Part shown: one piece after another, positions 4,024 through 27,989 of the stretch | Layout: each line of letters begins with the position of its first letter | Position numbering within the stretch: the stretch's first letter is position 1 | Assembly: GCA_046262595.1 (NCBI GenBank) | Contig: JBHEMM010000021.1 | Coordinates: 1-27,989, forward strand | Reading direction: 5' to 3' | DNA length: 27,989 bases | Origin: Vulcanimicrobiaceae bacterium | Lineage (GTDB): Bacteria; Vulcanimicrobiota; Vulcanimicrobiia; Vulcanimicrobiales; Vulcanimicrobiaceae | Translations under genes and position numbers: made by a program | The notes under the pieces: generated by a model | Seen by the model: the letters and a program-made list of their open reading frames with translations, nothing else | What the model was told of the DNA's origin: nothing | Database searches by the model: none

Positions 4024-4026
4024 GCG

Positions 4027-4850: not shown

Positions 4851-4855
4851 ACGCA

Positions 4856-8684: not shown

Positions 8685-9232
8685 AGAACGCCGTCACGAC
8701 GAACGCCCATTGTGTCATGCTGAGCCCCTCGAAGGCCCGGCCAGCGTCGAGGGCATTGACGATCGCCTTACCATTGCTTCTCGCCGCCGCAAGCCTTTGG
8801 ACGCAAGCGCTCGCTCAGGACGCGCACGCGCGAACCGGGGCCGATGCCATGAAAAGGCTCGCGTTCCTGAGCGGATCGTGGACGTGCACGATGCACGGCG
8901 GCAGCTCCGAGGGCGTCGTCGATCATTTAACGTATTCGTTTACTGCGGACGGCCGCTGGATGATCGAACGCAGCGACGTGCAGGGCGGTGAATCGTCCGT
9001 GCAGATCTGGGGTTATGATCCCGCGCAGCGCCGGCTGATCGCGCAGCAATACGGACCGCAAGGCGTCGCAACGAAAACGGTCGATGGTTGGAAGCAGAAC
9101 CAATTCGTGAGCCGCCGCGACGACAACGGTGCCACCATCGTGCTGCAGCAGAGTGCTCCGAACGCGTTCTCGTGGACCGTTCATGCTTCGGCGCCCGGGC
9201 AATCCGCCGTCAGGGAGAACTGCATCCGGTAA
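8681..9232 (+). CDS. Hypothetical exported protein (DUF1579-like/lipocalin-like beta-barrel) inside the nuo operon
   Basis: ATGA overlap with nuoF and TAATG overlap with nuoG. A hydrophobic signal LTIALPLLLAAASLWTQALA is followed by MKRLAFLSGSWTC and IWGYDPAQRR. The true start may lie further downstream. Confidence 0.7.
   Translation: MKNAVTTNAHCVMLSPSKARPASRALTIALPLLLAAASLWTQALAQDAHARTGADAMKRLAFLSGSWTCTMHGGSSEGVVDHLTYSFTADGRWMIERSDVQGGESSVQIWGYDPAQRRLIAQQYGPQGVATKTVDGWKQNQFVSRRDDNGATIVLQQSAPNAFSWTVHASAPGQSAVRENCIR
8713..8760. repeat. Imperfect inverted repeat, REP-like
   Basis: GTCA-TGC..CCCTCGA pairs with TCGAGGG-CA-T-TGAC. Only one copy was noticed in the window. Confidence 0.35.
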
Positions 9233-11478: not shown

Positions 11479-12476
11479 ACATTTTAACACCCGCAGCGAG
11501 CATTTGGTGGATGGTGCTGATCAAGTGTGCCGTCCTGCTGCTCGTCGTCGTCACGACGTTCGCTTACGCGATGCTGTTCGAGCGCAAGGTGATGGGGTGG
11601 ATGCAGCTGCGTCCCGGCCCCAACCGCGTCGGTCCCTGGGGGCTCCTTCAGCCGGCCGTCGATGCGGTGAAGCTGATCTTAAAAGAAGATCTTACTCCGA
11701 AGACCGCCGATCCGCTGATTTACCGTCTGGCGCCGTTTATCTCGCTCCTGACGGCATTTTCCGTCTACGCGGTGATCCCGTTCTCCGAGCCCTCGCCCGG
11801 CAGCATCTGGGCGATCGGCGACGTCAACGCCGGCATTTTATTCATTCTTGCACTAACGTCGATTGGCGTGTACGGCATATCGTTGGGCGGCTGGGCGTCG
11901 GGATCGAAGTATCCGCTGCTCGGCAGCGTGCGCGCGACCGCACAGATGATCAGCTACGAGCTCTCGATGTCGCTCTCGATTATCGGCGTGCTGATTTTGG
12001 CGGGAACCACCTCGCTTTCCGGCATCGTGAACGCGCAGACGCGGCTTTGGTTCATCATTCCGCAGATCGTCGGCTTCTTTATTTACATTATCACGGCCAT
12101 CGCTGAAACCAACCGCGCTCCGTTCGACTTGGTCGAAGCCGATGCGGAGCTCGTCGGCGGATTCAACACCGAATACTCGGGGCTGCGTTTCGGGCTGTTT
12201 TTCATCGCCGAATACATCAACATGCTGACCGTTTCGTGCATCGCGACGCTCTTGTTCTTGGGCGGCTGGAATGCCGTCGCGGGCTTGAGCTTCATTCCGG
12301 GCATCGTGTGGTTCTTACTGAAAGTGGCGCTGTTCATGTTTTTGTATATTTGGCTGCGCTCGACGTTCCCGCGCTTCCGGTATGACCGGCTCATGGCCTT
12401 CGGCTGGAAAGTGCTGCTGCCGGCGGCAACGTTGAATCTCGTCGCCACCGCGGTGATCGTGGCGGTGCGTCCGTGA
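11475..12476 (+). CDS. nuoH: NADH-quinone oxidoreductase subunit H
   Basis: Motifs ERKVMGWMQLRPGPNRVGP, KEDLTP, AQMISYE, AETNRAPFDL and PRFRYDRLM..GWK. Confidence 0.98.
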   Translation: MNILTPAASIWWMVLIKCAVLLLVVVTTFAYAMLFERKVMGWMQLRPGPNRVGPWGLLQPAVDAVKLILKEDLTPKTADPLIYRLAPFISLLTAFSVYAVIPFSEPSPGSIWAIGDVNAGILFILALTSIGVYGISLGGWASGSKYPLLGSVRATAQMISYELSMSLSIIGVLILAGTTSLSGIVNAQTRLWFIIPQIVGFFIYIITAIAETNRAPFDLVEADAELVGGFNTEYSGLRFGLFFIAEYINMLTVSCIATLLFLGGWNAVAGLSFIPGIVWFLLKVALFMFLYIWLRSTFPRFRYDRLMAFGWKVLLPAATLNLVATAVIVAVRP

Positions 12477-13078
12477 GCAGCCGCAAGAATCTTTTCAACG
12501 TCGGCGCACTTGCGGCAGGCTTGGCCGTGACGTTCAAGCACATGTTTTCAAAGAAGCCGACCATTCCGTATCCATCGCAAAAGAAAAAGCATGCGCCGCG
12601 CTTTCACGGTCTGCACGAACTGCGGCGCTATGCCGACGGCAAAGAGCGCTGCATCGGCTGCGAGCTGTGCTCGAGCGTCTGCCCGGCAAACGCTATTACG
12701 GTGATTGGAGCGGAGAACGCTCCGGGCGATCGCCGATCGCCCGGAGAGCGCTACGCCGCGCGTTATGAAATCGACGAGCTGCGCTGTATTTTTTGCGGCA
12801 TGTGCGAAGAAGCGTGCCCCACGGACGCCATCGTCCTCACGCCGCGGTTCGAGATGTCGGAGTACCGGCGGGGCTCGCTGATCTACGCGAAGGATCGTTT
12901 GCTGGTGCCGCCCGAAGCCGGCGTCGGAGAAGCGCCCGACGGCCGCCCGAACGGCATTCCGTGCGATCTCGGCAGCGTCGCGGAGAGAAAATCGACGGTG
13001 GATTGGCGGACCGGCTACGATGCGACGTGGCGCGGGCAGATTCTCAAGACGCAGAAGAAGGGCCTGGCCGAAGAGTGA
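12473..13078 (+). CDS. nuoI: NADH-quinone oxidoreductase subunit I
   Basis: GTG start. Two 4Fe-4S motifs, CIGCELCSSVCP and CIFCGMCEEACP. Confidence 0.97.
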   Translation: MSSRKNLFNVGALAAGLAVTFKHMFSKKPTIPYPSQKKKHAPRFHGLHELRRYADGKERCIGCELCSSVCPANAITVIGAENAPGDRRSPGERYAARYEIDELRCIFCGMCEEACPTDAIVLTPRFEMSEYRRGSLIYAKDRLLVPPEAGVGEAPDGRPNGIPCDLGSVAERKSTVDWRTGYDATWRGQILKTQKKGLAEE

Positions 13079-13674
13079 TCCTCTTTTACGGCGCGGCGTT
13101 CGTTCTGATTGTGACGGCCATCTTCGTCGTCACGGCAAAGAAGCCGGTCCACAGCGTGGTTGGCCTGCTGGCACACTTTGCCGCTCTTGCGGTTTTGTAT
13201 TTTTCGCTTTCCGCTGAATTTCTCGGCGTCATTCAAATCATCGTGTACAGCGGCGCGATCCTCATTTTGTTCGTCTTCGTCATCGCGCTGCTTTCAAGCG
13301 GCGTTGCGCCGTTCCGCGAAGGGCCCAACCGTTTACCGAAAATCGCCTTTCCCGCTGCCGGCGGCATCGCGGTGCTGCTCGGATTTTTGATTTCTGCCGC
13401 CGGGCGCGTTCGCGTGGGCGCGCCGGGGGGCGCTTCGGGCGGTTTACCGCCGGTCGGCGCGGCCAACGCCTTCGGTTCGATCGCCCAGTTCGGACGGGCA
13501 CTGCTCACGACGGACTTGCTGCCGTTCGAAATCACCGCCTTCATTCTTATGGTCGCGGTCATCGGCGTTATTCTGCTGGTCGGCGACACTGCACCGTACG
13601 TGCCGGTTCGTAAACGCGAACGGTTGGCCGACCGCGAAATGCGTGAAGCGGTGCTGCGCGAAGGCGGCAAGTGA
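13075..13674 (+). CDS. nuoJ: NADH-quinone oxidoreductase subunit J
   Basis: GTGA overlap at 13075. Motifs PVHS, AEFLGVIQIIVYSGAILILFVFVI and LLPFE. Confidence 0.95.
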   Translation: MILFYGAAFVLIVTAIFVVTAKKPVHSVVGLLAHFAALAVLYFSLSAEFLGVIQIIVYSGAILILFVFVIALLSSGVAPFREGPNRLPKIAFPAAGGIAVLLGFLISAAGRVRVGAPGGASGGLPPVGAANAFGSIAQFGRALLTTDLLPFEITAFILMVAVIGVILLVGDTAPYVPVRKRERLADREMREAVLREGGK

Positions 13675-14000
13675 TGATGCCGCACGCCGGCCTGCTCCCC
13701 GTCGCCCTTTTTAACTACATCAGCCTCTCGCTGGTGATTTTCTGTATCGGCCTTGCCGGCGTGCTGCTGCGGCGCAATCCGCTGATCATGCTGATGAGCA
13801 TCGAACTGATGTGGAACGCGGCCAATCTGCTGTTCCTCACGTTCTCGCGCGCGTGGCTCAACAACAGCGGTCACATCTTCGCTTTCCTCGTGATCACCGT
13901 CGCGGCCGCCGAAGCTGCGATCGGTTTGGCGATTGTGGTGGCGGTTTTCCGCGATCGGCAGAACGTCGATGCCGATGAAGTGGCGCTTCTCAAAGGATGA
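13671..14000 (+). CDS. nuoK: NADH-quinone oxidoreductase subunit K
   Basis: Motifs RRNPLIMLMSIELMWNA and VAAAEAAIGLA. The start could be 13671, 13674 or 13677. Confidence 0.97.
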   Translation: MMMPHAGLLPVALFNYISLSLVIFCIGLAGVLLRRNPLIMLMSIELMWNAANLLFLTFSRAWLNNSGHIFAFLVITVAAAEAAIGLAIVVAVFRDRQNVDADEVALLKG

Positions 14001-14020
14001 GCTGCGCATCTCATCCTTTT
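13992..14020 (+). terminator. Internal stem-loop at the nuoK/nuoL junction (weak terminator or processing site)
   Basis: Perfect 10-bp inverted repeat AAAGGATGAG / CTCATCCTTT with an 8-nt loop; the 3' arm ends in TTTT. Confidence 0.4.
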
Positions 14021-14041
14021 GGAAGCGCGGTGGAGAAATGA

Positions 14042-16039
14042 TTGGAATACGTACGCATGCATGAGATGGGTGTCGGGGGGAATTATCCCGTGCTTTGGGT
14101 GATTTGGCTGATGCCGTTACTCGGAGCGGTTCTGTGTTGGGCATGGGGGCCGCAGCTCAAACGCGGCGCCGGCGTGCTCGCAAGTGCGGCGGCCGGCGTT
14201 TCGTTCCTCGCCGCGCTGGCCGCTTGGGGAAGCGCGACGCAGCATGTGGGCGGGCTCTTAGGTGCGCATCAGGCGTTGTTTTCGTGGCTGCCCGGATTCG
14301 ATTTCGGCCTGCTGCTCGATCCGCTTGCGCTGATTTGGACGCTGATCATCTGCGGCGTGGGCTTCTTGATCCATGTCTATTCCATCGGGTATCTGTGGTC
14401 GGACCGCGCGATTGCGCGCTTCTTCGCGTACATGAACTTCTTCGTGTTCGCGATGCTCACGCTGGTGCTCAGCGATAACTTCGCCGGCTTACTCGTGGGT
14501 TGGGGTTTGGTGGGTCTGGCTTCGTACTTCCTGATCGGCTTTTGGTTCTTCAAGCCCTCAGCGGTCGCCGCCGCGCGTAAAGCGTTCGTCATCAACGTTG
14601 TCGGCGACGTCGGCATCATGTTCGCGATTTTTTTGATGTTCTCGAAGGTCGGCTCCGTCCGCTTCGCCGACGTCTTCGCCAACCCGCACGCGCTCGATCC
14701 ATGGCTTTTTTGGACGTGCGTGTTTTTGTTCATCGGCGCCGCCGCGAAGTCGGCGCAGCTGCCGCTGCATACCTGGCTTGCCGACGCGATGGAAGGGCCG
14801 ACCCCGGTCTCGGCACTTATCCATGCCGCAACGATGGTCACCGCCGGCGTCTATCTCGTCGCGCGCTGTTCGCCGCTTTGGACCGCCTCGCACGATGCCC
14901 AGACCTTGGTCGGAACGGTGGGCTGCCTCACGGCGCTGGCCGGCGCGATGCTCGGAATCGCGCAGTGGGACATCAAACGAATTCTGGCCTATTCCACCAT
15001 GTCACAGATCGGATACATGATCATGGGCGTCGGCGTTGGCGCGTTCGGCGCGGGCGTGGCGCATTTTTTCACGCACGCGTTCTTTAAAGCGTGCTTGTTC
15101 TTGGGCTCGGGCATCGTCATCCACGAGCTCGCCGACGAACAGGACATCCGCCTGATGGGCGGCATGCGTAAACGCACACCCGTCGCGTTTTGGGCCATGG
15201 GGGCTTCTGTGCTCGCCATCAGCGGCTTTCCATTTTTTTCCGGATACTTCAGTAAGGATCAAGTCATCTACGGCGCGCTGCAGAATGGGTATCCATGGAT
15301 GTGGGCGGTGGGGCTTCTGACGGCCGGCATCACGGCGTATTACATGTTCCGGTTGTTCTTCGTCACCTTTTTTGGCACGTACCGCGGCGCTTTGGATCCG
15401 GCGCAGGTCGGCGTGACGCGGCAAGCGCAGTCCGGCCCGGGCGCCGTCATCTCGCACCAGCATGCCGAACCGCACGAACGCGATGCGCACGCGCCTGGCT
15501 GGATTATGGCGGTGCCCGTTGCGATTCTCGGCGTTTTCGCCGTGACAGCCGGCTACCTCATGATCGGCCCCGAGTCGCCATGGGCGCATTTTTTCGCGTC
15601 TTCCTTTCCCGCGCGAGCATTGCCCACGCCGGCCATCAGCGAAGTGGCGACCACACTGATCGCCGTCGCAATGTTTGCGATCGGCTGCGCGCTGGCGTAC
15701 GGCCGCTACATGAGCCGTGCGTTCTTGGAAAACGCGGCGCAGCACCTCGCGCGCGAAACGCGAACGCAGCCGCGCGTCCTCGTGCATTTATACTACTTCA
15801 ACGAAGCGATCGACGTGCTGTTCGTGCGGCCCGCCCTGGCGCTGGGCACATTTTGCGGGCGCTGGTTCGATCCGCATCTGATCGACGGCGTGGTGCGTGA
15901 AACACTGTTGGGAAGCCGCTTCGCGGGCAGTGTGATGCGTGCGGCGCAGACCGGGCTGGTCCGTTCGTACGCGCTCGTGCTCGTCTTGGGCGCGGCTGCG
16001 TTTGCGGTGTACTACGCGCTCGAAGGGGCGGCGCACTGA
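14042..16039 (+). CDS. nuoL: NADH-quinone oxidoreductase subunit L
   Basis: Motifs KSAQLPLHTWLADAMEGPTPVSALIHAATMV, DIKRILAYSTMSQ, HAFFKA, FSKD and QTGLVRSY. The TTG start follows GGAG; alternative ATGs are at 14057 and 14066. Confidence 0.97.
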   Translation: MEYVRMHEMGVGGNYPVLWVIWLMPLLGAVLCWAWGPQLKRGAGVLASAAAGVSFLAALAAWGSATQHVGGLLGAHQALFSWLPGFDFGLLLDPLALIWTLIICGVGFLIHVYSIGYLWSDRAIARFFAYMNFFVFAMLTLVLSDNFAGLLVGWGLVGLASYFLIGFWFFKPSAVAAARKAFVINVVGDVGIMFAIFLMFSKVGSVRFADVFANPHALDPWLFWTCVFLFIGAAAKSAQLPLHTWLADAMEGPTPVSALIHAATMVTAGVYLVARCSPLWTASHDAQTLVGTVGCLTALAGAMLGIAQWDIKRILAYSTMSQIGYMIMGVGVGAFGAGVAHFFTHAFFKACLFLGSGIVIHELADEQDIRLMGGMRKRTPVAFWAMGASVLAISGFPFFSGYFSKDQVIYGALQNGYPWMWAVGLLTAGITAYYMFRLFFVTFFGTYRGALDPAQVGVTRQAQSGPGAVISHQHAEPHERDAHAPGWIMAVPVAILGVFAVTAGYLMIGPESPWAHFFASSFPARALPTPAISEVATTLIAVAMFAIGCALAYGRYMSRAFLENAAQHLARETRTQPRVLVHLYYFNEAIDVLFVRPALALGTFCGRWFDPHLIDGVVRETLLGSRFAGSVMRAAQTGLVRSYALVLVLGAAAFAVYYALEGAAH

Positions 16040-17436
16040 TGTCCGTGCTGCTCATTTTGATTCCCATGATCGCGGGTGCGCTGCTGTTCGCACTTCCCGC
16101 TGCGGATCGCACTGTAAGCCGCATCGCCGGCTGCGCTGTCGCCGCATTCACCTTTTTACTGCCGCTCGCAGCAGGCCCCGGCGGAACGTTCAGCGCGCAT
16201 TGGCTGTCGCGCCCGTTCGACGCCGCGTTCCACTTGAGTTGGAGCGGCATCTCGCTCTGGCTTGTGTTGCTGCTTGCGGTCTGTACGTTCTGTGCGGTGC
16301 TTGCCGCAAACGTGACGCACACGCGGACGATGATCGCGCTGCTGCTGCTGCTCGAGGGCAGCATGATGGGCGTCTTTACGGCGCGCGATCTGCTCGCGTT
16401 CGCGCTGTTTTGGGACCTGATGCTCATTCCGCCGTTTTTTGCACTCGTGGGATGGGGCGGTCACCGTGAAACGGCGTGGCGCTACTTGCTCTATAATTTT
16501 GCCGGAGGATTAACGCTGCTGCTCGCAACGGCGGCCTTCGGCGTGATCCAAGGCAGCACCGACGTACTCGCCGGCGGGGCACATGCGGTGATCGGCGCCT
16601 GGGCGCCGTGGATCTTTGCCGGGTTTGCGTTTGCGTTCGCCGTAAAGACGCCGCTGTTTCCTTTGCATACGTGGATGCCGGCGACATATGCGGATACGCC
16701 GGCGCCGATGGTCAGTGTGGTCAGCTCGGTGCAGTCGAAGGCCGGTCTCTACGGATTCTTGGTGATCGGATTGCCGTTCTTGAGCGGCCAGATGGCGCAA
16801 TGGCGGGGATTGTTCGTCGTCATCGGGTTGATCTCGCTGCTCTACGGCGCATTTATCGCGCTCGCGCAGACGGACGCAAAGCGTATCGTGGCCTACTCGT
16901 CGCTCTCGCATCTGGGCCTCATCGCGCTCGCGGTGTTCAGTCAGAATCCCGTGGCCTTACAGGGCGCGCTGATCTATATTGTCGCGCACGGATTGTTCAG
17001 CGCAGCGCTCTTTCTCATACTCGGTTACGTGGAACAGCGCGAAGGAACGCGGTCGCTGCGCCGTCTGGGCGGTTTGGGCGCGCTCAATCCGAAGCTCGCC
17101 GGCGCGTTCACGATCGCCGCGTTGGCGGCACTCGGGCTTCCGGGCCTTGCCGGCTTTGCGGGCGAAATCGTCATTCTGACGGGCGTGCTGCGCGCGGGAC
17201 TGTTCTGGCCGGCGATGATCGCGCTTATCCCGATCGTTCTGGCTTCCGCCTACGTGCTGCGCTTGCTGCAAGACGTCATGAACGGCCCGCCGGTTGAGGA
17301 CTTGCCCGAGCGGCGCGATCTGACGCTCGTCGAAGGATTGGCCGTTGCTCCGCTGCTCGGCGCGCTCGTCGTACTCGGCGTGAACCCGCACGCGCTGACC
17401 GCAAGCGTCGCGGCAATTTTGGGAGCGAAACCATGA
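16039..17436 (+). CDS. nuoM: NADH-quinone oxidoreductase subunit M
   Basis: Motifs AFAVKTPLFPLHTWMP, DAKRIVAYSSLSH, AHGL and GLPGLAGFAGE. Confidence 0.96.
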   Translation: MSVLLILIPMIAGALLFALPAADRTVSRIAGCAVAAFTFLLPLAAGPGGTFSAHWLSRPFDAAFHLSWSGISLWLVLLLAVCTFCAVLAANVTHTRTMIALLLLLEGSMMGVFTARDLLAFALFWDLMLIPPFFALVGWGGHRETAWRYLLYNFAGGLTLLLATAAFGVIQGSTDVLAGGAHAVIGAWAPWIFAGFAFAFAVKTPLFPLHTWMPATYADTPAPMVSVVSSVQSKAGLYGFLVIGLPFLSGQMAQWRGLFVVIGLISLLYGAFIALAQTDAKRIVAYSSLSHLGLIALAVFSQNPVALQGALIYIVAHGLFSAALFLILGYVEQREGTRSLRRLGGLGALNPKLAGAFTIAALAALGLPGLAGFAGEIVILTGVLRAGLFWPAMIALIPIVLASAYVLRLLQDVMNGPPVEDLPERRDLTLVEGLAVAPLLGALVVLGVNPHALTASVAAILGAKP

Positions 17437-18866
17437 TCCTCAACCCGTACGGGGCGCTCGATTGGAACGCGGTCGCGCCGCTCTTCATCGTCGCAGGCGC
17501 CGCCGTCATCGTTCTGCTTGCCGATCTGCTCGTGCGAAAGCCGAACGGCTGGATATCGATTGGAATCGCCATTGCGGGTCTGCTCGCGGCGGGCGCATAT
17601 GCGGCGCGCAGCTTCGGCACGGTCCACTCCGCGTTCGCCGGCGGCTTTTTGCTCGGCGGATTCGGCATCGTGATGCAGGAAACGATTGTCATCGGCGCTT
17701 TGCTCGCGCTCGCAATGATCCGCGTCGACCGCAATCCGCAGCGCATCGGCGGCAGCGTCGCGCTGCTTCTGTGGGCGACCAGCGGCGCCATGCTGATGGC
17801 GGGCGCCGGGAACCTCATGACCGTGTTCTTGGGGCTGGAGCTGCTCTCGCTCGCACTGTATTGTTTGTGCGCGCTCGGCCGGCGTGCTGCGTCCCGCGAA
17901 TCAGGCTTCAAATATCTCATCCTATCCTCGACGGCTTCCGGGTTTCTGCTTTTCGGCATGGCGCTGCTGTTCGGCGCCACGGGAAGCATGGCGCTGGGCG
18001 CGCTCACCGCTCCCGCGCTCTCGCACGATCCGCTCTATTGGATCGGCGGCGGCCTATTTATCGCGGGGCTTGCGTTCAAATTGAGCTTGGTGCCGTTTCA
18101 CGTGTGGTCGCCCGACGTGTACGAAGGCGCTCCGCTCGCGGTGACGGCCTACATGAGCGTGGTTACGAAGGTCGGAACGCTGGCGGTGCTCGCGCGCTTC
18201 ATCTTCTCCGCATACGCTGCCGGAACCGGCGACGCGCTTCTGCTGCCGCTGTTCATCATCGCCGGCATATCGATGGTCGCCGGCAATGCGGCAATGATCG
18301 CGCAGACCGACCTCAAGAGGCTATTGGCGTATTCCGGCATCGCGCAGGCGGGGTATATCGTTGCGGCGCTCGCGGGCGGCACGGCACTGGGCGCGCGCTA
18401 TGCGATCTACTACGTCGTCGCCTACACACTTATGAACCTGGGCGCGTTTGCCGTTGCGGCGCTCTGTTCTCACGATGCCGAAGAGGGCGCGCACTTGCCA
18501 TCATACCGCGGGTTGGCGCGGCGCAGACCGTTCCTGGCTGCGGCCATGACGTTCTTTCTGCTCGCGCTCGCCGGCTTTCCGCCGACGGCCGGATTTCTGG
18601 GCAAAGTGCTCATCCTGTCGGTGAACGTGACGGCCGGCTTTGCCTGGCTGGGCGCGTTGCTCATCATCGGCACCGCGATATCGCTTTACGCCTACTTTAA
18701 AATCATCCGCGCGATGTACGAGCCGCAAGCGCGGCCGACCGCAGCGGCCGCGCGTTGGACGCAGTTGCCGTTGGCCTACGTGTCCATCGTCGTGTGCGCT
18801 GCGGCGATAGCGGTGATGACGTTCTATCCGCTCACGCCGAGCAGCGTTCTCCCGCTTGCGCGATAG
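17433..18866 (+). CDS. nuoN: NADH-quinone oxidoreductase subunit N
   Basis: Motifs FLGLELLSL, ESGFKY, FKLSLVPFHVWSPDVYEGAP, KRLLAYSGIAQAGY and GFPPTAGFLGK. Confidence 0.97.
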   Translation: MILNPYGALDWNAVAPLFIVAGAAVIVLLADLLVRKPNGWISIGIAIAGLLAAGAYAARSFGTVHSAFAGGFLLGGFGIVMQETIVIGALLALAMIRVDRNPQRIGGSVALLLWATSGAMLMAGAGNLMTVFLGLELLSLALYCLCALGRRAASRESGFKYLILSSTASGFLLFGMALLFGATGSMALGALTAPALSHDPLYWIGGGLFIAGLAFKLSLVPFHVWSPDVYEGAPLAVTAYMSVVTKVGTLAVLARFIFSAYAAGTGDALLLPLFIIAGISMVAGNAAMIAQTDLKRLLAYSGIAQAGYIVAALAGGTALGARYAIYYVVAYTLMNLGAFAVAALCSHDAEEGAHLPSYRGLARRRPFLAAAMTFFLLALAGFPPTAGFLGKVLILSVNVTAGFAWLGALLIIGTAISLYAYFKIIRAMYEPQARPTAAAARWTQLPLAYVSIVVCAAAIAVMTFYPLTPSSVLPLAR

Positions 18867-18898: not shown

Positions 18899-19009
18899 AA
18901 GTGTTCGTAGGAGCGCGCTCAGTAAGTAGACGGGTGTGCCGATAATCTGGTAGTAACGACGTAAGGGAATGCGGGTGCTCCCCCTCGTGTTGACGTGGGA
19001 GAGACTAAA

Positions 19010-19510
19010 ATGGATTTTCGGCGCGCGCTCATAGCGCTCTGCTTTTTGACTTCTACGCTGCCCGGAATCGCGCTTGCGCGACCGCAGGTGGCTTTGCATT
19101 TGTCCGCATTTTTAATTCAATCGTCGCAAGGCCGCAGCTCGCAAGTGCCGCTCGGCGATAAGAAGGCGCAAGCCGGAGATCGCGTGCGCTTCATTATCGA
19201 AGCGCGCAACAGCGGTTCGTCTTCCGCCTTGCATCTGACGCCCACCGATCCGATTCCGGCGCACATGACGTATGTGAGCGGCAGCGCACAGGATGGCCAA
19301 TCCACCGTGCAGTTTACCGTGGACGGAAAAACGTGGGCCGAACATCCCACCGTTCACGTCAAGACGAGCAAACGAACCATCAGCAAGCCGGCTGACCCCT
19401 CGATGTACAGGGCAATCCGCTGGGTGACGCACGTAGCATTACCGGCAAAGCATACGTTCACGTATTCGTACGAAGCGCAAGTGGACGGTCTTAAAAAAGG
19501 CGCGAAATGA
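19010..19510 (+). CDS. Small exported single DUF11-like domain protein
   Basis: GGGAG Shine-Dalgarno and ATG at 19010. The signal peptide ends in ALA. Motifs GDRVRFIIEARNSG, TDPIPAHMTYVSGSA and IRW..LPA..TYSYEAQV. Confidence 0.8.
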   Translation: MDFRRALIALCFLTSTLPGIALARPQVALHLSAFLIQSSQGRSSQVPLGDKKAQAGDRVRFIIEARNSGSSSALHLTPTDPIPAHMTYVSGSAQDGQSTVQFTVDGKTWAEHPTVHVKTSKRTISKPADPSMYRAIRWVTHVALPAKHTFTYSYEAQVDGLKKGAK

Positions 19511-22080
19511 ACCGGATTCTTTTGCGCGCCTGGTTCGGCGTTTTTGTCTTTGCCTGCGTTCTGGGATTGGCGCTCTCGCGGCACTCCGCCATGACGCCCG
19601 TAATGGCCGTTACGCCGAGTCCTACGCCCGTTCCGCTGCCGTACGCTTCGGCGACGCCGACACCGGCGAGTCCCTCGCTCACCGGCCCGGGACAAACGAT
19701 CACCAACGCCGCGTCCGCAACGTACAGCGACGGCACGAATACGTACAATATTCTCTCGAACACGGTCACCGTTTACGTGCAGAACGCTCCCACGCTCGTC
19801 GTACTCACGAACAACGGCACGAGCGTGGGAAGCAACACGACCCGCTATCCGGGCGTCTACACGTACGATCTGTACACGCTCGTCAACACGGGTAATGGGA
19901 CGGGCTATTTCACCGTCGCATCGGGCCCGCAAGCCTCGCCCACGCCGTTGCCCGCAACGAACAGCGGCACGGGAACGACCGGCACGGTCACCAACGTCAG
20001 TTACGATGTCAGCTGCAGCGGCGGCGCGACTTTGAACGACATCGTCACCACGATCGCCGCGCTGAATACCGACTTGCAGAACGCTGCGTGCAGCGTTGCT
20101 TCCAACGGCTCGGTGAGCATCGAAGTGGTCCTCGACCCGACGGCGGCGCCCGCTTCGGACGGATCGACGCTCGAAGCGCAGATCACCTATTCGACGAGCG
20201 GCACCGGCTACAATGCCGCGAGCTCGCTCTATGCAAGCAACTCGTACGTCGACCCGGTCGTCACGGACGAGCGAATCGACGTGCAGAAATCCCCGGCACC
20301 GATCGCGACGGACGGTACCGTCACGTATGCGGTCACCGCCAACAATGCCGGCAACGGCCCGGCGCAGTACGTTACCGACTATGGCACTACGTGTACGGGC
20401 ACCGTTACGGTGTGCGGCCCGGCATTGACGGGCCCCGGCTTGCTGATCGCGGATAAGATTCCGCTCAATGCAAGCAACACGCCGCTCCCCGTCGTTACGA
20501 TGTCGCCCTCGCCCGGGCCGCAAGCGCTGCCGCCGAGCACGACCGTTTCCGTCGTTTACACCACCGACAGTACTGCGAAGACGGGCTGGACCGTGAAGAC
20601 GGCCGCAACCTTCCCGCCGACGACGCGATACGTCGGCGTGTTCCTCACGGGCGGCGCATATGCGCTCGGCGCGGACCCCACGCCTGCGGCAACGACGACG
20701 CCGGGCTTCGTGCCGGCGGCGAGTTCGCAGATCGGTTTTAGCGTCACGCTCGGGCCGCTCCCCGCGAACCTCACCGTCAGCAATATCGTGACGGCTGCGG
20801 CGGGAGACAACAAGACGACGCCGTGCATCGAAGGGCCCGGCTTGGTGACGACCTCGACGAGCTGCGATCCGAACGGACCGAACGGCCCCGGCGGCGATCC
20901 GTCGATTCCGCTGGCAACGGCGCCGCCTTCACCGAGCGCGCCCGGACCGGGCCTCTCGAACACGACGACGACGTTTACTCCCGCGCTTTACAACGGCCCG
21001 CTCACTGCTCCGGATGCACAAGGCTGTTTCAACAGCAGCGCAGCTCCGGTGCCCCTGCCGACGTGGAGCCCGATGCCCAATCCGTTCCCGACGATTTCGC
21101 CCACAACGTCGCCGACCTGTGCCGCAACGGACAACCAAGACGACTTCACGCAAGCCGTGAGCACGCCGAATCCTTCTACGACCAACATGCCGTACGGCAC
21201 GCAGATGTCCGCCGCATCGACCGTGACGGTGGCGAACTCGATTAAAAACCCGGGCGCGCAATCCACCGTGTATCAGTTGACGTTTCCAACGCTTCCGGCG
21301 GGCATTACGGTGACGAGCGTCACCTACGGCGCCGCGTCGTGCTCGACGACCTCAACGCCGGCCTCGGGCGTATATCCGCTGGGAAGCATCGGCGCAGGTG
21401 CAACGATCCAATACTGCGTGCTCTATACCACCGCGACCGGTGCGAGCGCGCCGTATTACTTCCAGCCGCAGTTCGTTCAACTGCGCGTTGCATACTCGTC
21501 GGCGCCGGCGGTGTACTACAACGACACGTGGAACGTGCTGATGCCCGGCGGTTTCGTTGAAATCGTTAAGACCGCCAACATCCTGACCGCGCTTCCCGCA
21601 ATCTCGAACTTCTCCGGAAACTGCTCGGGAACGATTACGGGCGGCTTGCCGACGCTGGGCGTCTGTCCGGGCGGCATCATCCAATACGCCGTCGCCTACG
21701 TCAACACGTTACCGCCCACCTCAAGCGGCACGCCGGCCGAACCGGCTGGAGCATCCGTTGCGATGACGGGCAACTTGGTGATCACGGAAGACGGCGCTGT
21801 GAACGGCAGCAATTGGACGACGTACACGGGCGGCATGTTCGACCCTGCCGGCGCGGGTACGGTGCCGCTTGTTGCGGGGCTTTCATTGAGCACGCTCTCG
21901 GCGAATTGCGGCATCGTAACGCTCAAATGCGGCGCGACATCCGCTTCGGCGACCTTCGGCGGCGGCGCCTCACCGAATGGCAACCTCTACGGCTCGACGC
22001 ACTTCACCGCTACCATTCCCGCTGCGGGCATTACGGCGCAGAGCGTCGGCACGTTGATGTTCGCCGCAAAAGTGCACTAG
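19507..22080 (+). CDS. Large exported S/T/P-rich multi-Ig-fold (DUF11-like) protein, candidate major fibre subunit
   Basis: ATGA overlap and a signal peptide. Segments include TITNAASATY, YTLVNTGNG, VQKS..VTYAVTANNAG..ADKIP and IVKT..PGGIIQYAVAYVN..ITEDG. The mature region has 14 Cys. Confidence 0.8.
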   Translation: MNRILLRAWFGVFVFACVLGLALSRHSAMTPVMAVTPSPTPVPLPYASATPTPASPSLTGPGQTITNAASATYSDGTNTYNILSNTVTVYVQNAPTLVVLTNNGTSVGSNTTRYPGVYTYDLYTLVNTGNGTGYFTVASGPQASPTPLPATNSGTGTTGTVTNVSYDVSCSGGATLNDIVTTIAALNTDLQNAACSVASNGSVSIEVVLDPTAAPASDGSTLEAQITYSTSGTGYNAASSLYASNSYVDPVVTDERIDVQKSPAPIATDGTVTYAVTANNAGNGPAQYVTDYGTTCTGTVTVCGPALTGPGLLIADKIPLNASNTPLPVVTMSPSPGPQALPPSTTVSVVYTTDSTAKTGWTVKTAATFPPTTRYVGVFLTGGAYALGADPTPAATTTPGFVPAASSQIGFSVTLGPLPANLTVSNIVTAAAGDNKTTPCIEGPGLVTTSTSCDPNGPNGPGGDPSIPLATAPPSPSAPGPGLSNTTTTFTPALYNGPLTAPDAQGCFNSSAAPVPLPTWSPMPNPFPTISPTTSPTCAATDNQDDFTQAVSTPNPSTTNMPYGTQMSAASTVTVANSIKNPGAQSTVYQLTFPTLPAGITVTSVTYGAASCSTTSTPASGVYPLGSIGAGATIQYCVLYTTATGASAPYYFQPQFVQLRVAYSSAPAVYYNDTWNVLMPGGFVEIVKTANILTALPAISNFSGNCSGTITGGLPTLGVCPGGIIQYAVAYVNTLPPTSSGTPAEPAGASVAMTGNLVITEDGAVNGSNWTTYTGGMFDPAGAGTVPLVAGLSLSTLSANCGIVTLKCGATSASATFGGGASPNGNLYGSTHFTATIPAAGITAQSVGTLMFAAKVH

Positions 22081-22096
22081 GCACAATCGAGGTCTG

Positions 22097-24256
22097 GTGA
22101 AGGGTGCCTTCGTCCGACTAATACCGGTCGCCACGGTCCTCATGACGCTCGTTGTCATGTTGGGCCGTGGCGAATCGGCATATGCCGGGCCGTCCGATCC
22201 GGCCGCTAACACAACGATAATCAATTCGGCTACGGCGACCTGGTCCGACAGTGCCGGGCATAGTTTCGAAGAATCGTCCAATCAGATTACCGTTATCGTC
22301 CAAGGCGTTTCGGCGCTTACCGTGACGCCGAAGGAAACCGCTGCGAATCCCTCGCTGGATGGTTATCCCGCCGCTCAAAACGTGACGCGGACGTTCGTGA
22401 TCGAAAACGCGAGCAACATCGCCGACGCGTACCGCATATCCGCATTTACGGCCGACCGCGGAACGCTCGTTTCGCTTGCGTTCGTCACGTCCGGCGGGAA
22501 CGTTCCCATCACCGTCGGTTCCACCGTCTCGCCCACGCTGCAGCCGGGCGAGAGCATCACGGTGCAAACGGTCGTCTCAACGGCGGGCATTGCGGTAGGC
22601 ACCTCGTTTGCGCTGCATCTCACGGCGCAGACCACCGTCACGGGAACCGCGAACGGCGTGCAGAGCGACAGCGGCGAGCAATGGCTTGTGGCGGCGGCCG
22701 GTCCGGCTTTGAGCGGCCCCGGCGGCGGCAGCACGCCGATCTCGAAAACGGTGAACCGCGAACAAGTGCTGCAGTCGCAGTCGGGCGCGATCGTCACGTT
22801 CGACATCGTCGTAAAGAACAACGGCGGGACGCCTGCCGACAACGCGGTGATGACGGATACGATACCCGCCGGCCTGACGGCCGACCTGACGACGCTTAAA
22901 CTCAACGGCGTTGCGGTTTCGGGAACGCAATCCGGTCAAACGCTCACGGTGCCGCTTGGCATGCTGGCGGCAGGCGCGGTCGACGACGTCTCGTTCAATT
23001 CGCAGATCGCTGCTATCGATACGCTCGGCACGACGTTCGTGAACGTCGCGGCGATCGCCGCAGACGGTATTGCGCCGGCCTCGACGACGCCGGCCGCCAT
23101 TTTGATCGGCACGGCCGACATCGTTTTCGACCCGTCGAACAACAACGCGCCGATCGCCGGCGCGACCGTTTCGCTCCTCGACCAGAACAGTCACTTGGTG
23201 CCCCTGGGCGCCGGCAGCAACGGCGCGTTCCGCGCGAAGACTTTTTCCGCTCCGCAGTCGGCCAATTCGCAGAACCCGTTGCTCACGGGTCCCGACGGCA
23301 CGTACGGGTTCGCGCTCGAGCCGAATCAAATCGGCCCCGGCGCAGGCACGTTTTACATTACGATTCAGGCTCCCGGGTATCTTAACCGCCGAATCAAAAT
23401 CGTTCTCACGGCGTCCACGCAAGGCATGCTGTACGACGTGACGACCTCATCGCAGGACGGCCAGCCCTTAGCGCACGCGGGCGGGTATGCGCTTACAACG
23501 GGCGCCGTTGCGCTCAATAATATCTTCGGTTTGTTCGGCAACTTGCCGATGTTCAAAACGCAGGCGATTACCATCGATAAAGTGGTCGACCGCACCAGCG
23601 CGCAACCCGGCGACCGGCTCGTCTACACGCTCGATGTTGCGAACCCGTCCGGCGCGCCGCTGATCGCGGCCAAGGCGATCGACACGCTGCCCTCGGGCGA
23701 ATCGTATGCGCCCGGATCCGCGCGCGTGGATGGGGTCCCGCGCGAACCCGCCGTCAACGGACGCGCGCTGACGTGGAATCTCTCGACGATCGCCTCGGGC
23801 GCGAAACATCAGATCGTTTACGCGGCGATCGTCTATCCCAACGTCCCGGCCGGTACCACGTTGACGAACTCCGCGGTCGCGCAGGCGGTCCTCTCGGGAA
23901 CACTGGTCAACGTAAATGCCGCGGCCAATGCCGACGTCATCATCACCGAAGGCGCATTGAGCGACCGCTCCGTCATCACCGGCCGGGTGTTCGCGGACCT
24001 GATGCACACCGGCCGCTTCGTTAAAGGCGATCGCGGCCTGGCCGGCGTGCGCGTCTTTCTTGAAGACGGCACCTCGGTGACGACGGACTCGCAAGGGCGC
24101 TACAGTTTCCCGGGCGTCCGGCCGGGCATGCACGTGCTTCGCGTCGACCGGACGACGCTTCCCGACGGCGCAAACGGGACGTTTCAGCGTCTCATCCACG
24201 GCGTGCTCGACGACGGGCTGATGCAAGACGTCGAGTTTGCGGTGGGTTCGCCATGA
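22097..24256 (+). CDS. Exported protein with two DUF11 repeats and a C-terminal SdrD-B-like domain
   Basis: GAGG followed by GTG, then a signal ending AYA. Repeats are SKTV..VTFDIVVKNNG..TDTIPAGL and DKVVD..PGDRLVYTL..DTLPSG. The C-terminal domain reads ITGRVFAD..GLAGVRVFLEDG..TDSQGRYSFPGVRPGMHVLRVDRTTLP. Confidence 0.85.
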   Translation: MKGAFVRLIPVATVLMTLVVMLGRGESAYAGPSDPAANTTIINSATATWSDSAGHSFEESSNQITVIVQGVSALTVTPKETAANPSLDGYPAAQNVTRTFVIENASNIADAYRISAFTADRGTLVSLAFVTSGGNVPITVGSTVSPTLQPGESITVQTVVSTAGIAVGTSFALHLTAQTTVTGTANGVQSDSGEQWLVAAAGPALSGPGGGSTPISKTVNREQVLQSQSGAIVTFDIVVKNNGGTPADNAVMTDTIPAGLTADLTTLKLNGVAVSGTQSGQTLTVPLGMLAAGAVDDVSFNSQIAAIDTLGTTFVNVAAIAADGIAPASTTPAAILIGTADIVFDPSNNNAPIAGATVSLLDQNSHLVPLGAGSNGAFRAKTFSAPQSANSQNPLLTGPDGTYGFALEPNQIGPGAGTFYITIQAPGYLNRRIKIVLTASTQGMLYDVTTSSQDGQPLAHAGGYALTTGAVALNNIFGLFGNLPMFKTQAITIDKVVDRTSAQPGDRLVYTLDVANPSGAPLIAAKAIDTLPSGESYAPGSARVDGVPREPAVNGRALTWNLSTIASGAKHQIVYAAIVYPNVPAGTTLTNSAVAQAVLSGTLVNVNAAANADVIITEGALSDRSVITGRVFADLMHTGRFVKGDRGLAGVRVFLEDGTSVTTDSQGRYSFPGVRPGMHVLRVDRTTLPDGANGTFQRLIHGVLDDGLMQDVEFAVGSP

Positions 24257-27200
24257 TCCGCCGCTCGTTTGCGCGCCTGCTGCAGGCCGTCGCGGTGCTG
24301 TTGATCTGCGTAGCCGGCGTGGGTTCGACGTTGTTCTTCACGCGCGCGCAAGACGATTCGAAACCGCAATACAGTGACCTCTCCCATCTGAAGCTGACGG
24401 CGACGCGCAGGCTGCCGGCCAACGTGATCGCTCCGCAGGACGGCGCATCGATTTCGGGCGCCGCAACGCAAGTCACCGTGGAAACCGTGAACGGTGCGGG
24501 CGTCGAGCTCCAGGTGAACGGCGAGATCGTTCCGGTTCGGAACTTGGGACGCATGAGCGTTTCGAAGGCGGGAACGACGCAGTTCGAGTACTTCGGCGTG
24601 CTCCTTCGTGCCGGTCCGAACACGCTGCTTGCCACGGCAATCGGCGCCGGCGGCGCACGCGGAGCATCACAGAGCGAAACGATCTTCGGCGCCGGGCCGC
24701 CCGTCGCGATCCATGTATCGATGCTTGGTTCGCTTGTCGCGGACGGTAAAACGACGGCCCGGCTCATCGTCGATGCGGTCGACCAATGGAATCATCCCGC
24801 CATGTCGGGATCGGAAGTGCGCGTGAAGATTCTGCAGGGCCGCGCGCGCGTGGGCAACGCCGGCCAAAGCGATCCCGCAGCTGGCGCGTCGCCGGCTCCC
24901 TCGGCGTTTGCAACCTCGCTGCCCGCAAGCGGCACATCGTCGCCGCAAGCGCATTACGTTCTGGCGCAGGGCGGCCGCATCGTCATTCCGCTGACGGCCT
25001 CACTCGAGCCCGGAACGCTGCAGCTGCAGGTTGCGGTCAACGACATCACCGATACGCAGAGCTACACGATTGCGCCGTACCTGCGCGCTCCGTTCGTCAA
25101 CGGCATCATCTCCGCCGGAGCCGGGAACGTCCCGGCCGCCGTTGACGGCGACGGACGCTATGACGGCGGCGGCGCGCGCAAAGAGCGTCTTGCGATTTAT
25201 GCAAACGGCAAAGTAGGGCGCGCAAGTTCTCTCACGTTCTCGTACGAATCGCAGAACCGTTTAGAGGAATCGTCCTCGCTGGGTCCGTTCGTTTCGAATC
25301 CTGACGAGCGTCCGTATCAAACGTACGGCGACTCCTCGCGCGTAACCAGCGATTTTCACTCGACTGACCGCCTTTATGCACGCATCGATAACGGCCGCAA
25401 CAATCTGATGTGGGGCCAATACACGGCGGCCGTCGGAGATCCGCAGGGCGTTGCGCATTACGAGCAGCAGATCAGCGGCCTCAAAGGCGAGGCGACGCTG
25501 GGGCGTCCGGGACAAGGCCATGTCATGGCGTTTACCGCGCACGATCGCACCGGCTACGTGGCGTTCACCACTCCGGTTTCGGGGTTGGGAGCGCTGCTTG
25601 CGCCGCTGCACCCGAACGTCGTGATCGGCTCGGACGTGCTCACGCTCGTGGCTTTGGACCGCCGCACGGGCGCAGCCGCGTCGCAGACGCCGCTCACCCG
25701 CAACGTCGACTACACGATCGACTACGCGACGGGCGCGCTGCGTTTCCTCAATGTTCCGTTACCGTTCGATCAGAACTTCAATCCGCAGTTGCTGTACATT
25801 CAGTATCAATACCAGGGCCCCGACGTAAAATCCGAGACGAGCGGATTCGACTTCCGCTATGCACTGGCGCGCAACGGCTCCGCGACGTTTGACTTCGGCT
25901 ACTTGAACGATGCGAGCGGTACGACGAACTACTCGCTCGCGACGCAGTCCTTGAGCGGCCGCATGCCGACGGGCGATTGGCGTTTCTCGCGCGCAACGAG
26001 CAACGGTTCGGCGCCGACCGCCGCAAGCTTCGGCGAAACGCCGGCCTCGCGCGGAAGCGCAACGTCGTTCGCGCTTAACGAACACGTTCGCGGCAACGAG
26101 ATCGCTTTCAACTACCAAAATACAGGCGCCGGATTTGCGAATCCGTTCGGCGGCTTTAACGTGACGGGTTTGGAGAACATCCAGGCCACGTTCGCGCACC
26201 GCACGCGCAGTCAAAGCGCGTTCACGCTTTCTCTCTCGCAGCAGCGCAATACCGGAGGTTCGGGCGGATCGACCGGCGTTGAGCAAAACGTCGTGGCGAG
26301 CTGGCAGGCTGCGATCGCCAAAGCGCTCGCCGTTACCTTGGGATTTCAAGCGCAGCGCGAGACGAACGGCCCGGGCGCGATTGTGCCCGGACACACGCCG
26401 GTGCAGCCGGTCAACGGTTCGAGCGCCGGGCTGCAGGCGGGATTGCAATGGAAGGCGTCGCGCCGGCTCAGCGTGAGCGTGCAGCATGCCGCCTCACTCG
26501 GCGGCAACAGCCAAATTTTGCCTTCGCAAACCGCCGCGGAAGCCGACTACGATCTGCCCACGCAAGGCCGGCTCTACGTGCGCGAGCTGCTCGGCGGCGG
26601 CGTCTCGAGTTTTGCCTCGTCCACGTCGAGCCTTACAAACGCTTCCCTCGGCTCTCGTTCAACGCAGATCGGCATTCAGCGCACGATCGGCTCCACAACG
26701 GCGCTCGACACGTCGTATCTCATCGCCGACACGGGCAACGAAACGAACGTGTATACGACGCTGGGCGTGCAGGAAACGTTTCACCTTGGTAAGCGCCTCT
26801 CCGGCAACGCGACGTTCGAAAGCGCGCGTTCCACCGGCGCAAGCCCGGGCGGATTCAGCACGCTCGGAACGGGGTTGACGTACAGCGATCTCAAAGATTT
26901 CCGCGCCTCGTTTTCAATGCAGACGCGCGGCGGGGGCGGCGGCGGAATGACGATGAACGGAGGCGCTGCGGGGCATATCGGCCAAAATCTCGCGCTCATG
27001 GGATCGTTCAATGAAACGTTCGGCAACGGCCTTTCCATTGTTGACGACCGCATCTCGCTCGCGTTTCGTCCGTCTCAGAACGACAGGTTTATCTCGCTGC
27101 TCGGGCTGGACCGCCAATCCGGCGGCTATACAAACACTGCCGGAACCTCCGACATCCTCTCGTTTGAGGAAGTGTACCGGCCCACGCTTACGACGGAAAT

Positions 27201-27528
27201 TGCGGGCCGCGTCGGCTACAAGCTCAATGGCGACGGATACTATCTCGCGCACAGTTCGGTTGCGGGCGTGCGCATCACCCAATCGCTCGGCGCGCGGTTC
27301 GACATCGCCGGCGAAGTGCGCGCGATGGCTGCCGGGAACGTTGCGTCCGCGCGTTCTTCGGATTTTGCAGCCGAGATCGGCTACAAAGCGGGCGGCGCGC
27401 GGCTGTCGGGCGGGTACAATTTCTCTGGTGCGGTCGACCCGTCGCTTACCGGACATCCGCAGCGCAAAGGCTTGTATGTGATGGTAACGGCGCTTGTCGA
27501 TCGCATCTTCGGCTGGGGCAAGCCGTGA
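24253..27528 (+). CDS. Large predicted outer-membrane beta-barrel protein with N-terminal Ig-like domains
   Basis: It has its own signal peptide and an Ig-like region (ADGKTT..VDQW). Motifs YQTYGDSS and RNVDYTIDYATGAL are followed by several hundred residues of alternating amphipathic strands ending in GYNFSG..KGLYV. Confidence 0.75.
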   Translation: MIRRSFARLLQAVAVLLICVAGVGSTLFFTRAQDDSKPQYSDLSHLKLTATRRLPANVIAPQDGASISGAATQVTVETVNGAGVELQVNGEIVPVRNLGRMSVSKAGTTQFEYFGVLLRAGPNTLLATAIGAGGARGASQSETIFGAGPPVAIHVSMLGSLVADGKTTARLIVDAVDQWNHPAMSGSEVRVKILQGRARVGNAGQSDPAAGASPAPSAFATSLPASGTSSPQAHYVLAQGGRIVIPLTASLEPGTLQLQVAVNDITDTQSYTIAPYLRAPFVNGIISAGAGNVPAAVDGDGRYDGGGARKERLAIYANGKVGRASSLTFSYESQNRLEESSSLGPFVSNPDERPYQTYGDSSRVTSDFHSTDRLYARIDNGRNNLMWGQYTAAVGDPQGVAHYEQQISGLKGEATLGRPGQGHVMAFTAHDRTGYVAFTTPVSGLGALLAPLHPNVVIGSDVLTLVALDRRTGAAASQTPLTRNVDYTIDYATGALRFLNVPLPFDQNFNPQLLYIQYQYQGPDVKSETSGFDFRYALARNGSATFDFGYLNDASGTTNYSLATQSLSGRMPTGDWRFSRATSNGSAPTAASFGETPASRGSATSFALNEHVRGNEIAFNYQNTGAGFANPFGGFNVTGLENIQATFAHRTRSQSAFTLSLSQQRNTGGSGGSTGVEQNVVASWQAAIAKALAVTLGFQAQRETNGPGAIVPGHTPVQPVNGSSAGLQAGLQWKASRRLSVSVQHAASLGGNSQILPSQTAAEADYDLPTQGRLYVRELLGGGVSSFASSTSSLTNASLGSRSTQIGIQRTIGSTTALDTSYLIADTGNETNVYTTLGVQETFHLGKRLSGNATFESARSTGASPGGFSTLGTGLTYSDLKDFRASFSMQTRGGGGGGMTMNGGAAGHIGQNLALMGSFNETFGNGLSIVDDRISLAFRPSQNDRFISLLGLDRQSGGYTNTAGTSDILSFEEVYRPTLTTEIAGRVGYKLNGDGYYLAHSSVAGVRITQSLGARFDIAGEVRAMAAGNVASARSSDFAAEIGYKAGGARLSGGYNFSGAVDPSLTGHPQRKGLYVMVTALVDRIFGWGKP

Positions 27529-27989
27529 GCCGCGGCGGCAAACGGCTTGTAAAACGCACTGCGGTTGGACTGGTTCTGCTCGCGCAGGTGTACGCGTTCG
27601 TTCCGGCGCCGGCGCAAGAACGGCAGACGTACGCCTTTGCCGCAAGCGTCACGTGCCCAACCACGCCCGGAAACTATGTCGCCGGCGGGACGCTGGCCGC
27701 CGGCGTGAACAGCTATTGGCAGCCGCCCGCGGGGACGCTTGCGGCAGGCTCCACGACGTTTTCGCTGGGAACGATCGACACCGCGGGCGGCGGCGCCTCC
27801 ACAACGCCGAGCGCCGGCGACGAACTGTTGCTGATCCAGATGCAAGACGGATCCATCAATACGGCCAACAGCGCGGCTTACGGCGGCGGGGGCACCGGCG
27901 GCACCGGTTTCACTTCGCTCGGCAACGCCGGCTTGTACGAGTACGTATCGGTAACCGGCGTGGCGGGTTCCACAATGACGATCCAGGGC
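27525..27989 (+). CDS. Exported adhesin-like protein, 3'-partial (absent from the ORF track)
   Basis: GTGA overlap, and the frame is open to the window end: MSRGGKRLVKRTAVGLVLLAQVYAFVPAPAQ...GDELLLIQMQDGSINTANSAAYGG...GNAGLYEYV. Confidence 0.75.
   Translation, partial: MSRGGKRLVKRTAVGLVLLAQVYAFVPAPAQERQTYAFAASVTCPTTPGNYVAGGTLAAGVNSYWQPPAGTLAAGSTTFSLGTIDTAGGGASTTPSAGDELLLIQMQDGSINTANSAAYGGGGTGGTGFTSLGNAGLYEYVSVTGVAGSTMTIQG

Follow-up and report, generated by a model that had tools for sequence, protein, structure and literature searches.

A five-gene operon of a Vulcanimicrobiaceae bacterium that may assemble a surface fibre from split DUF11 domains

The gene cluster

Five genes, termed g1 to g5, are found in a row on the + strand of a contig from a Vulcanimicrobiaceae bacterium, an uncultured soil bacterium of the Eremiobacterota/Vulcanimicrobiota. 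The names borne by the nearest relatives of its proteins put it close to Baltobacteraceae. The stretch of DNA analysed, termed the window, comprises the first 27989 bases of this 42.6-kb contig; the metagenome-assembled genome (MAG) has 2.4 Mb and is 89.7% complete. The operon probably assembles a fibre on the cell surface from subunits joined by donor-hairpin complementation, the completed unit being a split DUF11 (CLIPPER) domain; the evidence for this reading is computational throughout. In outline, a two-strand hairpin at the amino terminus of one subunit (the donor) would complete a truncated DUF11 domain at the carboxyl terminus of another (the acceptor).

An earlier reading of the same DNA from its letters (the original prediction) described five co-oriented genes joined by 4-bp overlaps or a 16-bp gap, all with signal peptides. 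The open reading frame (ORF) list bears this out. There are 4-bp overlaps between g1 and g2, g3 and g4, and g4 and g5, and a 16-bp gap separates g2 from g3. The starts of all five proteins, as read from the sequences by eye, are leader-like, with a basic stretch followed by a hydrophobic stretch. The five are real genes, each with relatives that occur in the same order in other genomes.

The g1 gene (18995-19510) encodes 171 amino acids; the original prediction used an ATG at 19010 as its start. The g2 gene (19507-22080, 857 amino acids) encodes a putative shaft subunit with several Ig-like domains, characterized by an alignment of 18 orthologues and a complex model. Its predicted donor hairpin, residues 60-95 (19684-19791), was identified by a conserved pattern, profile-profile alignment and the interface of the complex model, and its C-terminal DUF11-like acceptor domain, residues 682-857 (21550-22077), by profile-profile alignment and conservation. 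The product of g3 (22097-24256, 719 amino acids) is the putative anchor subunit and displays the conserved hairpin pattern at residues 37-71 (22205-22309). The g4 gene (24253-27528, 1091 amino acids) encodes a leader, two Ig domains and ∼40 predicted β strands, as seen in an AF2 model and fold searches; a conserved β insert lies at residues 445-510 (25585-25782). Only the 5′ part of g5 is in the window (27525-27989), with the leader and the start of a Gly-rich putative tip protein of ∼950 amino acids in all. A 10-N scaffold gap, at positions 27990-27999 of the contig (C21), interrupts g5 just beyond the window end. After the gap g5 continues in a different reading frame and ends at contig position 30370; as the frames differ, some bases must be missing at the gap.

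Domains of the subunits

Family searches of g1 to g5 were with Pfam and NCBIfam, the Pfam cut-off for DUF11 (PF01345) being 24.6 bits. DUF11 is found above this cut-off once in g1 (32.4 bits) and twice in g3 (residues 215-322 and 493-597, 49.6 bits), where both domains are intact. In addition, g3 has an isopeptide domain of the RrgB type (TIGR04226) and, at its C-terminus, an SdrD_B/CarboxypepD_reg domain; an acceptor domain is absent. The g2, g4 and g5 proteins display no Pfam or NCBIfam family above threshold.

The g5 protein has no donor hairpin, and its C-terminal end is the same acceptor domain as that of g2. Its Gly-rich repeats (L098:2-2368, residues 136-351) show a weak NCBIfam match to AgmC_N, which represents the N-terminal domain of AgmC, a gliding protein of Myxococcus. 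At 51.8 bits the match is far under the cut-off of 275, and g5 is not regarded as a member of that family.

A DUF11 domain probably divided between subunits

DUF11 has recently been renamed CLIPPER and is described as a CnaA-like isopeptide domain of fibrillar adhesins with a Lys/Asp/Asn triad (PMC12617251). The same source gives a crystal structure, 9IFR, with an Asp-catalysed Lys-Asn isopeptide, the Lys being on the first strand and the Asn on the penultimate strand (PMC12617251).

The C-termini of all g1, g2 and g5 orthologues display the pattern ..[FY].[VA].[VI]K-COOH, and g2 and g5 share a terminal strand ..TF.V.VK-COOH. A local DUF11 hidden Markov model (HMM) of 106 positions was built from the intact domains of g3 and relatives. 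The alignment of g1 orthologues to it stops at position 87-88, which is the end of strand F and coincides with the protein C-terminus; 7 of the 18 g1 sequences searched reach this position and one more reaches 85. By hhalign, the end domain of g2 and g5 falls on DUF11 columns 2-99 of 144 (E 0.002). On the sequence evidence, a DUF11-type domain breaks off at the end of strand F in g1, g2 and g5, and the protein stops there.

The complementary part is located at the other end of g2 and g3. In all orthologues of both, a hairpin with the pattern GT.I.N.A.A.Y.D......Y...SN.V...V follows straight after the leader. It falls on DUF11 columns 101-136 of 144 (hhalign, E 0.0097), with N67 of g2 on the conserved DUF11 Asn. 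From these alignments, the N-terminal hairpins of g2 and g3 are the two strands missing from the truncated ends, conserved Asn included. Thus g1 and g5 are acceptor only, g2 is both donor and acceptor, and g3 is donor only.

Among the 18 g2 orthologues, N67, A69, A71, S84 and N85 of the hairpin are invariant, as is K688 on the first strand of the end domain. The acceptor also has an acidic pair, E761/D762, and its strand ITEDG keeps an acid across orthologues. The end domain of g5 retains the Lys and the [ED][DN]G strand of g2, and the Lys (K632 in g5C numbering) is invariant in the g5 alignment (A3). In g1, an 18-sequence alignment shows neither a conserved Lys nor a conserved acid at the canonical sites.

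A model of the joint

The pair modelled consists of g2 residues 56-255 and g2 residues 670-857, with three controls. The complex scores 0.73 compared with 0.00 for the best control; in calibration, the mark of the tool was reached by 116 of 157 solved complexes and by 2 of 215 mismatched pairs. Between runs, at least 76% of contacts agree; the partner chain has a pLDDT of at least 79. In the modelled interface, the hairpin (56-96) lies against acceptor residues 681-690, 704-731, 751-775 and 850-857, and K688 contacts residues 84, 85 and 87. The model supports complementation, short of proof.

The putative barrel and its fusion to the anchor

The original prediction took the protein encoded at 24253-27528 to be barrel-like, and the AF2 model of g4 (mean pLDDT 75.6) agrees. 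A leader helix is followed by two Ig domains at residues 56-274 and by an all-β meander of ∼40 strands at residues 281-1082, and the best fold matches of the model are outer-membrane barrels. The strand region is taken as a giant outer-membrane barrel, whose closure we infer. The most conserved stretch of the g4 family (VDYTIDYATG...) is the small β insert at 445-510, which follows roughly the eighth strand. It is placed much like the plug of ushers, and a plug function is possible.

No specific barrel family can be named from the fold matches. Foldseek gives TM-scores of 0.16 or less, with LptD first among the barrels, and VIA-align places Deinococcus SlpA first (7zgx, Z 13.6, 412 residues aligned, rmsd 10.7 Å), followed by porins, BamA and ushers at Z 11-13, none of which stands out. 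The Ig domains of g4 resemble intimin D00-D0/D0-D1 (VIA-align Z 12.5-12.6; Foldseek E 1.5e-6). A search of PDB sequences with the g4 barrel profile yields no match at E up to 1, and a search of the ESM Atlas with g4 yields only clusters named 'hypothetical'. The host genome has a BamA gene; the LptD profile gives no match there, in a search whose control finds LptD in only 2 of 14 known genomes.

The g4 family is large. A word-based search detects 88 relatives, nearly all unnamed, and a profile made from 36 relatives detects 3191 representatives, clustered at 50% identity, at E up to 0.001 (1278 at 1e-30). Many of these proteins are 1500-3600 amino acids long with the g4 module at the C-terminal end; in 10 of 11 long relatives scanned, DUF11 is located N-terminal to the barrel module, usually together with SdrD_B. 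One such protein, P0135, matches g3 at residues 37-696 (E 7e-65) and then g4 at residues 796-1818 (E 3e-64). The g3 sequence is collinear with its N-terminal half and g4 with its C-terminal half, so g3 and g4 are one protein elsewhere. In fused relatives, an OmpA domain also separates the g3-like part from the g4-like one.

Distribution of the cassette

The expectation that homologues of these genes co-occur is borne out. Of 20 loci that surround relatives of g4 elsewhere in the phylum, 17 have g1, g2, g3 and g4 in this order, and in 10 of these 17 a g5-like gene comes after g4. The three exceptions are a lone barrel gene with g1-g3 not nearby (L039, genome G036), a barrel gene followed by one for a 2109-amino-acid g3-like protein whose similarity to g3 is confined to the C-terminal part (L038, genome G145), and a distant relative.

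Matches to g4 and g1 were compared in one sample of 201 genomes of the phylum. Matches to g4 occur in 39 genomes, 34 strong and 5 weak, the weak ones in one family; g4 is absent from all 44 sampled genomes of one genus. Matches to g1 are likewise found in 39 genomes, 32 of them with E of 1e-14 or better. All 32 genomes with strong g1 matches are among the 34 with strong g4 matches, and of the other two, one is the lone-barrel genome and one a fragmented assembly. The remaining 7 matches to g1 are weak and are parts of large DUF11 proteins in genomes without g4.

One complete genome carries the whole cassette twice, 0.8 Mb apart (L028 and L029, G130:C1). Four contigs labelled Verrucomicrobiia or Rhodospirillales (L058, L071, L083 and L084) encode g4 relatives of 35-43% identity over the full length, which is as close as the Eremiobacterota ones. 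This similarity suggests that these contigs are mis-binned or recently transferred.

Comparable loci are also present in Desulfatitalea, in Woeseiaceae and other Gammaproteobacteria, and in Burkholderiales, Rhodanobacteraceae and Akkermansiaceae. Subunits there have 350-970 amino acids, a hairpin, and a DUF11 domain that is truncated behind strand F and contains the Lys and Asp. Two small donor-plus-acceptor subunits are kept in the distant loci. Tip proteins carry lectin or Pmp-type modules and have no hairpin. The fused anchor-barrel proteins begin with the hairpin, which is clear in 8 of 9 full-length sequences and looser in the remaining one (L094).

Comparison with known systems

The original prediction had proposed that the layout follows the logic of chaperone-usher pili with other protein families. 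Chaperone-usher pili consist of a tip (FimH/PapG), a rod (FimA/PapA), a terminator (FimI/PapH), an usher (FimD/PapC) and a chaperone (FimC/PapD). The general likeness holds: the two systems would share a donor-less tip, a chain-ending terminator, a large outer-membrane barrel at the base and probable growth from the base (PMC11821415). The proposed joining principle is also alike. A chaperone-usher pilin lacks strand G, which is filled by the N-terminal extension of its neighbour; in g1-g5 the same principle would apply to a DUF11 fold and a two-strand hairpin.

The differences are substantial. The barrel has ∼40 predicted strands rather than 24, and Usher (PF00577) has no match in g4 at E up to 0.01 and none in the 89.7%-complete genome. 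FimD/PapC folds match g4 at Z 11.5-12.3, not above unrelated porins. No PapD-like chaperone (PF00345) was found among the operon proteins or in that genome. In many relatives anchor and barrel form a single protein, and a covalent lock is predicted. The cassette would work like chaperone-usher pili without being related to them, and a classical chaperone-usher system is rejected. The roles first assigned need revision in two places. The g3 protein, a donor only that is fused to the barrel in other phyla, fits a terminal anchor, and g1, cast as a PapD-like chaperone, is an acceptor that consists of a truncated DUF11 domain and lacks the residues that form the bond. The split-DUF11 joining principle is an addition to that interpretation.

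Other known machines fare no better. The reported absence of LPxTG, sortase, prepilin and PapC/PapD signals agrees with motif scans and genome profile searches. Sortase-dependent pili are rejected: LPxTG is absent from g1-g5, where the looser pattern LP.[TSA]G occurs once (LPASG at g4 residue 223), and the Sortase profile has no match in the 89.7%-complete genome. The prepilin motif is absent from g1-g5. The type V pili of Bacteroidota are rejected on two counts: Pfam and NCBIfam give no FimA/Mfa-type pilin match, and the leaders have no lipobox Cys at the cleavage region. Autotransporters and inverse autotransporters of the intimin/invasin type, in which a 12-strand barrel and its passenger share one chain, are rejected too: their barrel families are unmatched here, and only the Ig domains of g4 are intimin-like. 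The TasA (peptidase M73) family has no Pfam or NCBIfam match in g1-g5. Searches with Pfam, NCBIfam, PDB sequences and the Usher, PapD and Sortase profiles assign no part to a characterized pilus or secretion machine. The literature searched, which did not extend to subscription journals and bioRxiv supplements, yielded no account of a fibre that combines split DUF11 domains with a barrel.

The engineered pair SpyTag/SpyCatcher, derived from a CnaB domain, offers a parallel. A peptide with one bond partner docks as a strand on a truncated domain and locks covalently. That split of CnaB is man-made; the operon would use a naturally split, CnaA-like domain for polymerization.

With CLIPPER itself, the likeness lies in the Lys-acid-Asn pattern at the expected places (K688, E761/D762 and N67), from which a bond is predicted here. 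In the CLIPPER structure the bond is within one domain of one chain; in the operon the domain would be cut between strands F and G, and the triad split over two proteins. The closest precedents found are a bacterial and an archaeal filament, both from organisms without an outer membrane. BsaA of Clostridium perfringens, a member of the TasA family, assembles by 'donor-strand exchange and lock' (PMC11580942). Its N-terminal strand inserts in a neighbour, and an N-E-K triad then forms an intermolecular isopeptide without sortase (PMC11580942). BsaA differs in fold, family and its monoderm host, and as described has no outer-membrane barrel, anchor subunit or separate tip (PMC11580942). The Sulfolobus thread protein Saci_0406 likewise combines donor-strand complementation with proposed inter-subunit isopeptide bonds (PMC9715654). 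It differs in being archaeal, in a bond that links the N-terminal amine of Asp24 with Asn57 in subunit n-2, and in an unrelated fold with, as described there, no barrel (PMC9715654).

Proposed assembly and alternatives

In the proposed mechanism, each donor hairpin would complete the C-terminal domain of the next subunit outward. From the tip, g5 or the one-domain g1, the chain would run through repeated g2 to g3, and the N-terminus of every subunit would face outward. The fusion of g3 to g4 is in keeping with this polarity, since the C-terminus of g3 would meet the periplasmic N-terminus of g4, and so is the OmpA domain that some fusions carry at the junction. Because g3 has no acceptor domain, it would terminate the chain. 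Its C-terminus would stay periplasmic, at the Ig domains of the g4 barrel, and the chain would pass through the barrel, g3 presumably being threaded through g4. New subunits would join at the base, as in chaperone-usher pili, and complementation would provide the driving force of assembly.

At each joint, K688 and E761/D762 of the acceptor and N67 of the incoming hairpin would rebuild the CLIPPER triad, so that a self-catalysed Lys-Asn isopeptide seal, formed without sortase, is probable. Since g1 has neither the Lys nor the acid, its binding of hairpins would be reversible, and it could serve as a cap or hold donor hairpins in the periplasm. It is thus a candidate non-covalent cap or donor-hairpin chaperone. 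A hairpin chaperone of this kind would mirror PapD, which acts on the other partner by capping the acceptor groove.

A more far-reaching proposal is offered tentatively: the operon may represent a new class of diderm pilus, an enzyme-free, self-locking fibre. In it, a natural Tag/Catcher split of CLIPPER would set both the subunit order and the covalent joint, the ∼40-strand barrel would act as usher and, by way of g3, as anchor, and g1, an addition of the Eremiobacterota form, would be a catalytically dead acceptor that chaperones hairpins.

Several observations weigh against a self-locking fibre. The hhalign matches that define the split are modest, with E values of 0.002 and 0.0097 and probabilities of 14% and 4%, and Pfam at E up to 10 gives no match for the g2 and g5 end domains, for either hairpin or for g5. 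In the complex model the pLDDT of the acceptor chain is no higher than 58-61, the contacts predicted for K688 with the highest rank involve the last strand and not N67, and intact DUF11 folds already familiar to the predictor may account for the passing score. The self-made covalent lock is plausible from residue conservation, its one line of evidence. The AF2 model of g5 (789 amino acids after the gap, 10-row alignment) has a mean pLDDT of 49.8, too poor for a fold search, and gives no basis for calling g5 an adhesin. The OmpA domain puts the fusion junction in the periplasm and is compatible with a larger or a smaller share of the anchor outside the cell. Finally, hairpin and acceptor are on one g2 polypeptide, an arrangement that would also allow closure in cis.

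The alternative that survives best, itself unlikely, is modular adhesin display: a g5 or g1 tip, with one or a few g2 spacers at most, on a g3-g4 root would form a short stalked adhesin and no polymer. The anchor is fused 1:1 to the barrel elsewhere, so its hairpin would always be near and could end the chain early, and g2 by itself already has 857 amino acids and several domains. Against this, g2 carries both donor and acceptor, which are docked on each other in the complex model, and the two small donor-plus-acceptor subunits of distant loci are as expected of shaft proteins.

Complementation in cis is very improbable. Here the g2 hairpin would close its own last domain, a circularly permuted DUF11; the proteins would be individual adhesins, secreted or on the surface, and g4 would be an exporter resembling a porin or an autotransporter. 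The shared polypeptide of g2 is consistent with such closure, yet g3 has a hairpin without an acceptor and g1 and g5 have acceptors without a hairpin, an imbalance that recurs in other phyla, and the ends of g2 are separated by roughly 600 residues (96-681) of several Ig-like domains. About as improbable is an envelope tether or surface layer. In this reading g3-g4, together with OmpA in relatives, would link cell wall and outer membrane, and the DUF11 proteins would make up a coat or a periplasmic scaffold, not a protruding fibre. It has the OmpA domain and the SlpA match in its favour; against it, the cassette is accessory within the phylum (39 of 201 genomes, 0 of 44 in one genus), tips of relatives carry lectin or Pmp-type adhesin modules and the SlpA Z score is barely above those of unrelated porins.

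Adjacent genes

The cassette lies immediately 3′ of a complete-looking nuo (complex I) operon, nuoB to nuoN, at 3813-18866 of the window. The spacer between the nuo operon and g1 is 143 bp, and a promoter and terminator scan shows no promoter-like site in it. As nuoN is found 5′ of the cassette in only 5 of the 17 order-keeping loci, the cassette is considered mobile and not part of nuo. On the - strand, a 505-amino-acid ORF at 2380-3897 of the window carries an ion-channel domain, Ion_trans_2, and sits between nuo and a pair encoding an HflX GTPase and a trypsin-like protease.

A TPR protein with a leader is encoded 0.6 kb 3′ of g5, at contig positions 30991-32205 (L098:2992-4206). A relative of this gene adjoins the cassette in 5 of the 17 loci, on either side, and a TPR gene is also found 3′ of the cassette in the Woeseiaceae locus (L091). 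The TPR protein may be an accessory factor of the cassette.

Biological significance

If the proposed fibre is correct, diderm bacteria of many phyla would share a type of pilus unrelated to chaperone-usher, type IV, type V, curli and sortase pili, and covalent fibres could form outside the cell without enzyme or ATP. The split domains would be a source of natural, orthogonal protein-ligation pairs, and g4 would be among the largest single-chain outer-membrane barrels. For the little-known Eremiobacterota, the operon would represent a surface structure for attachment.

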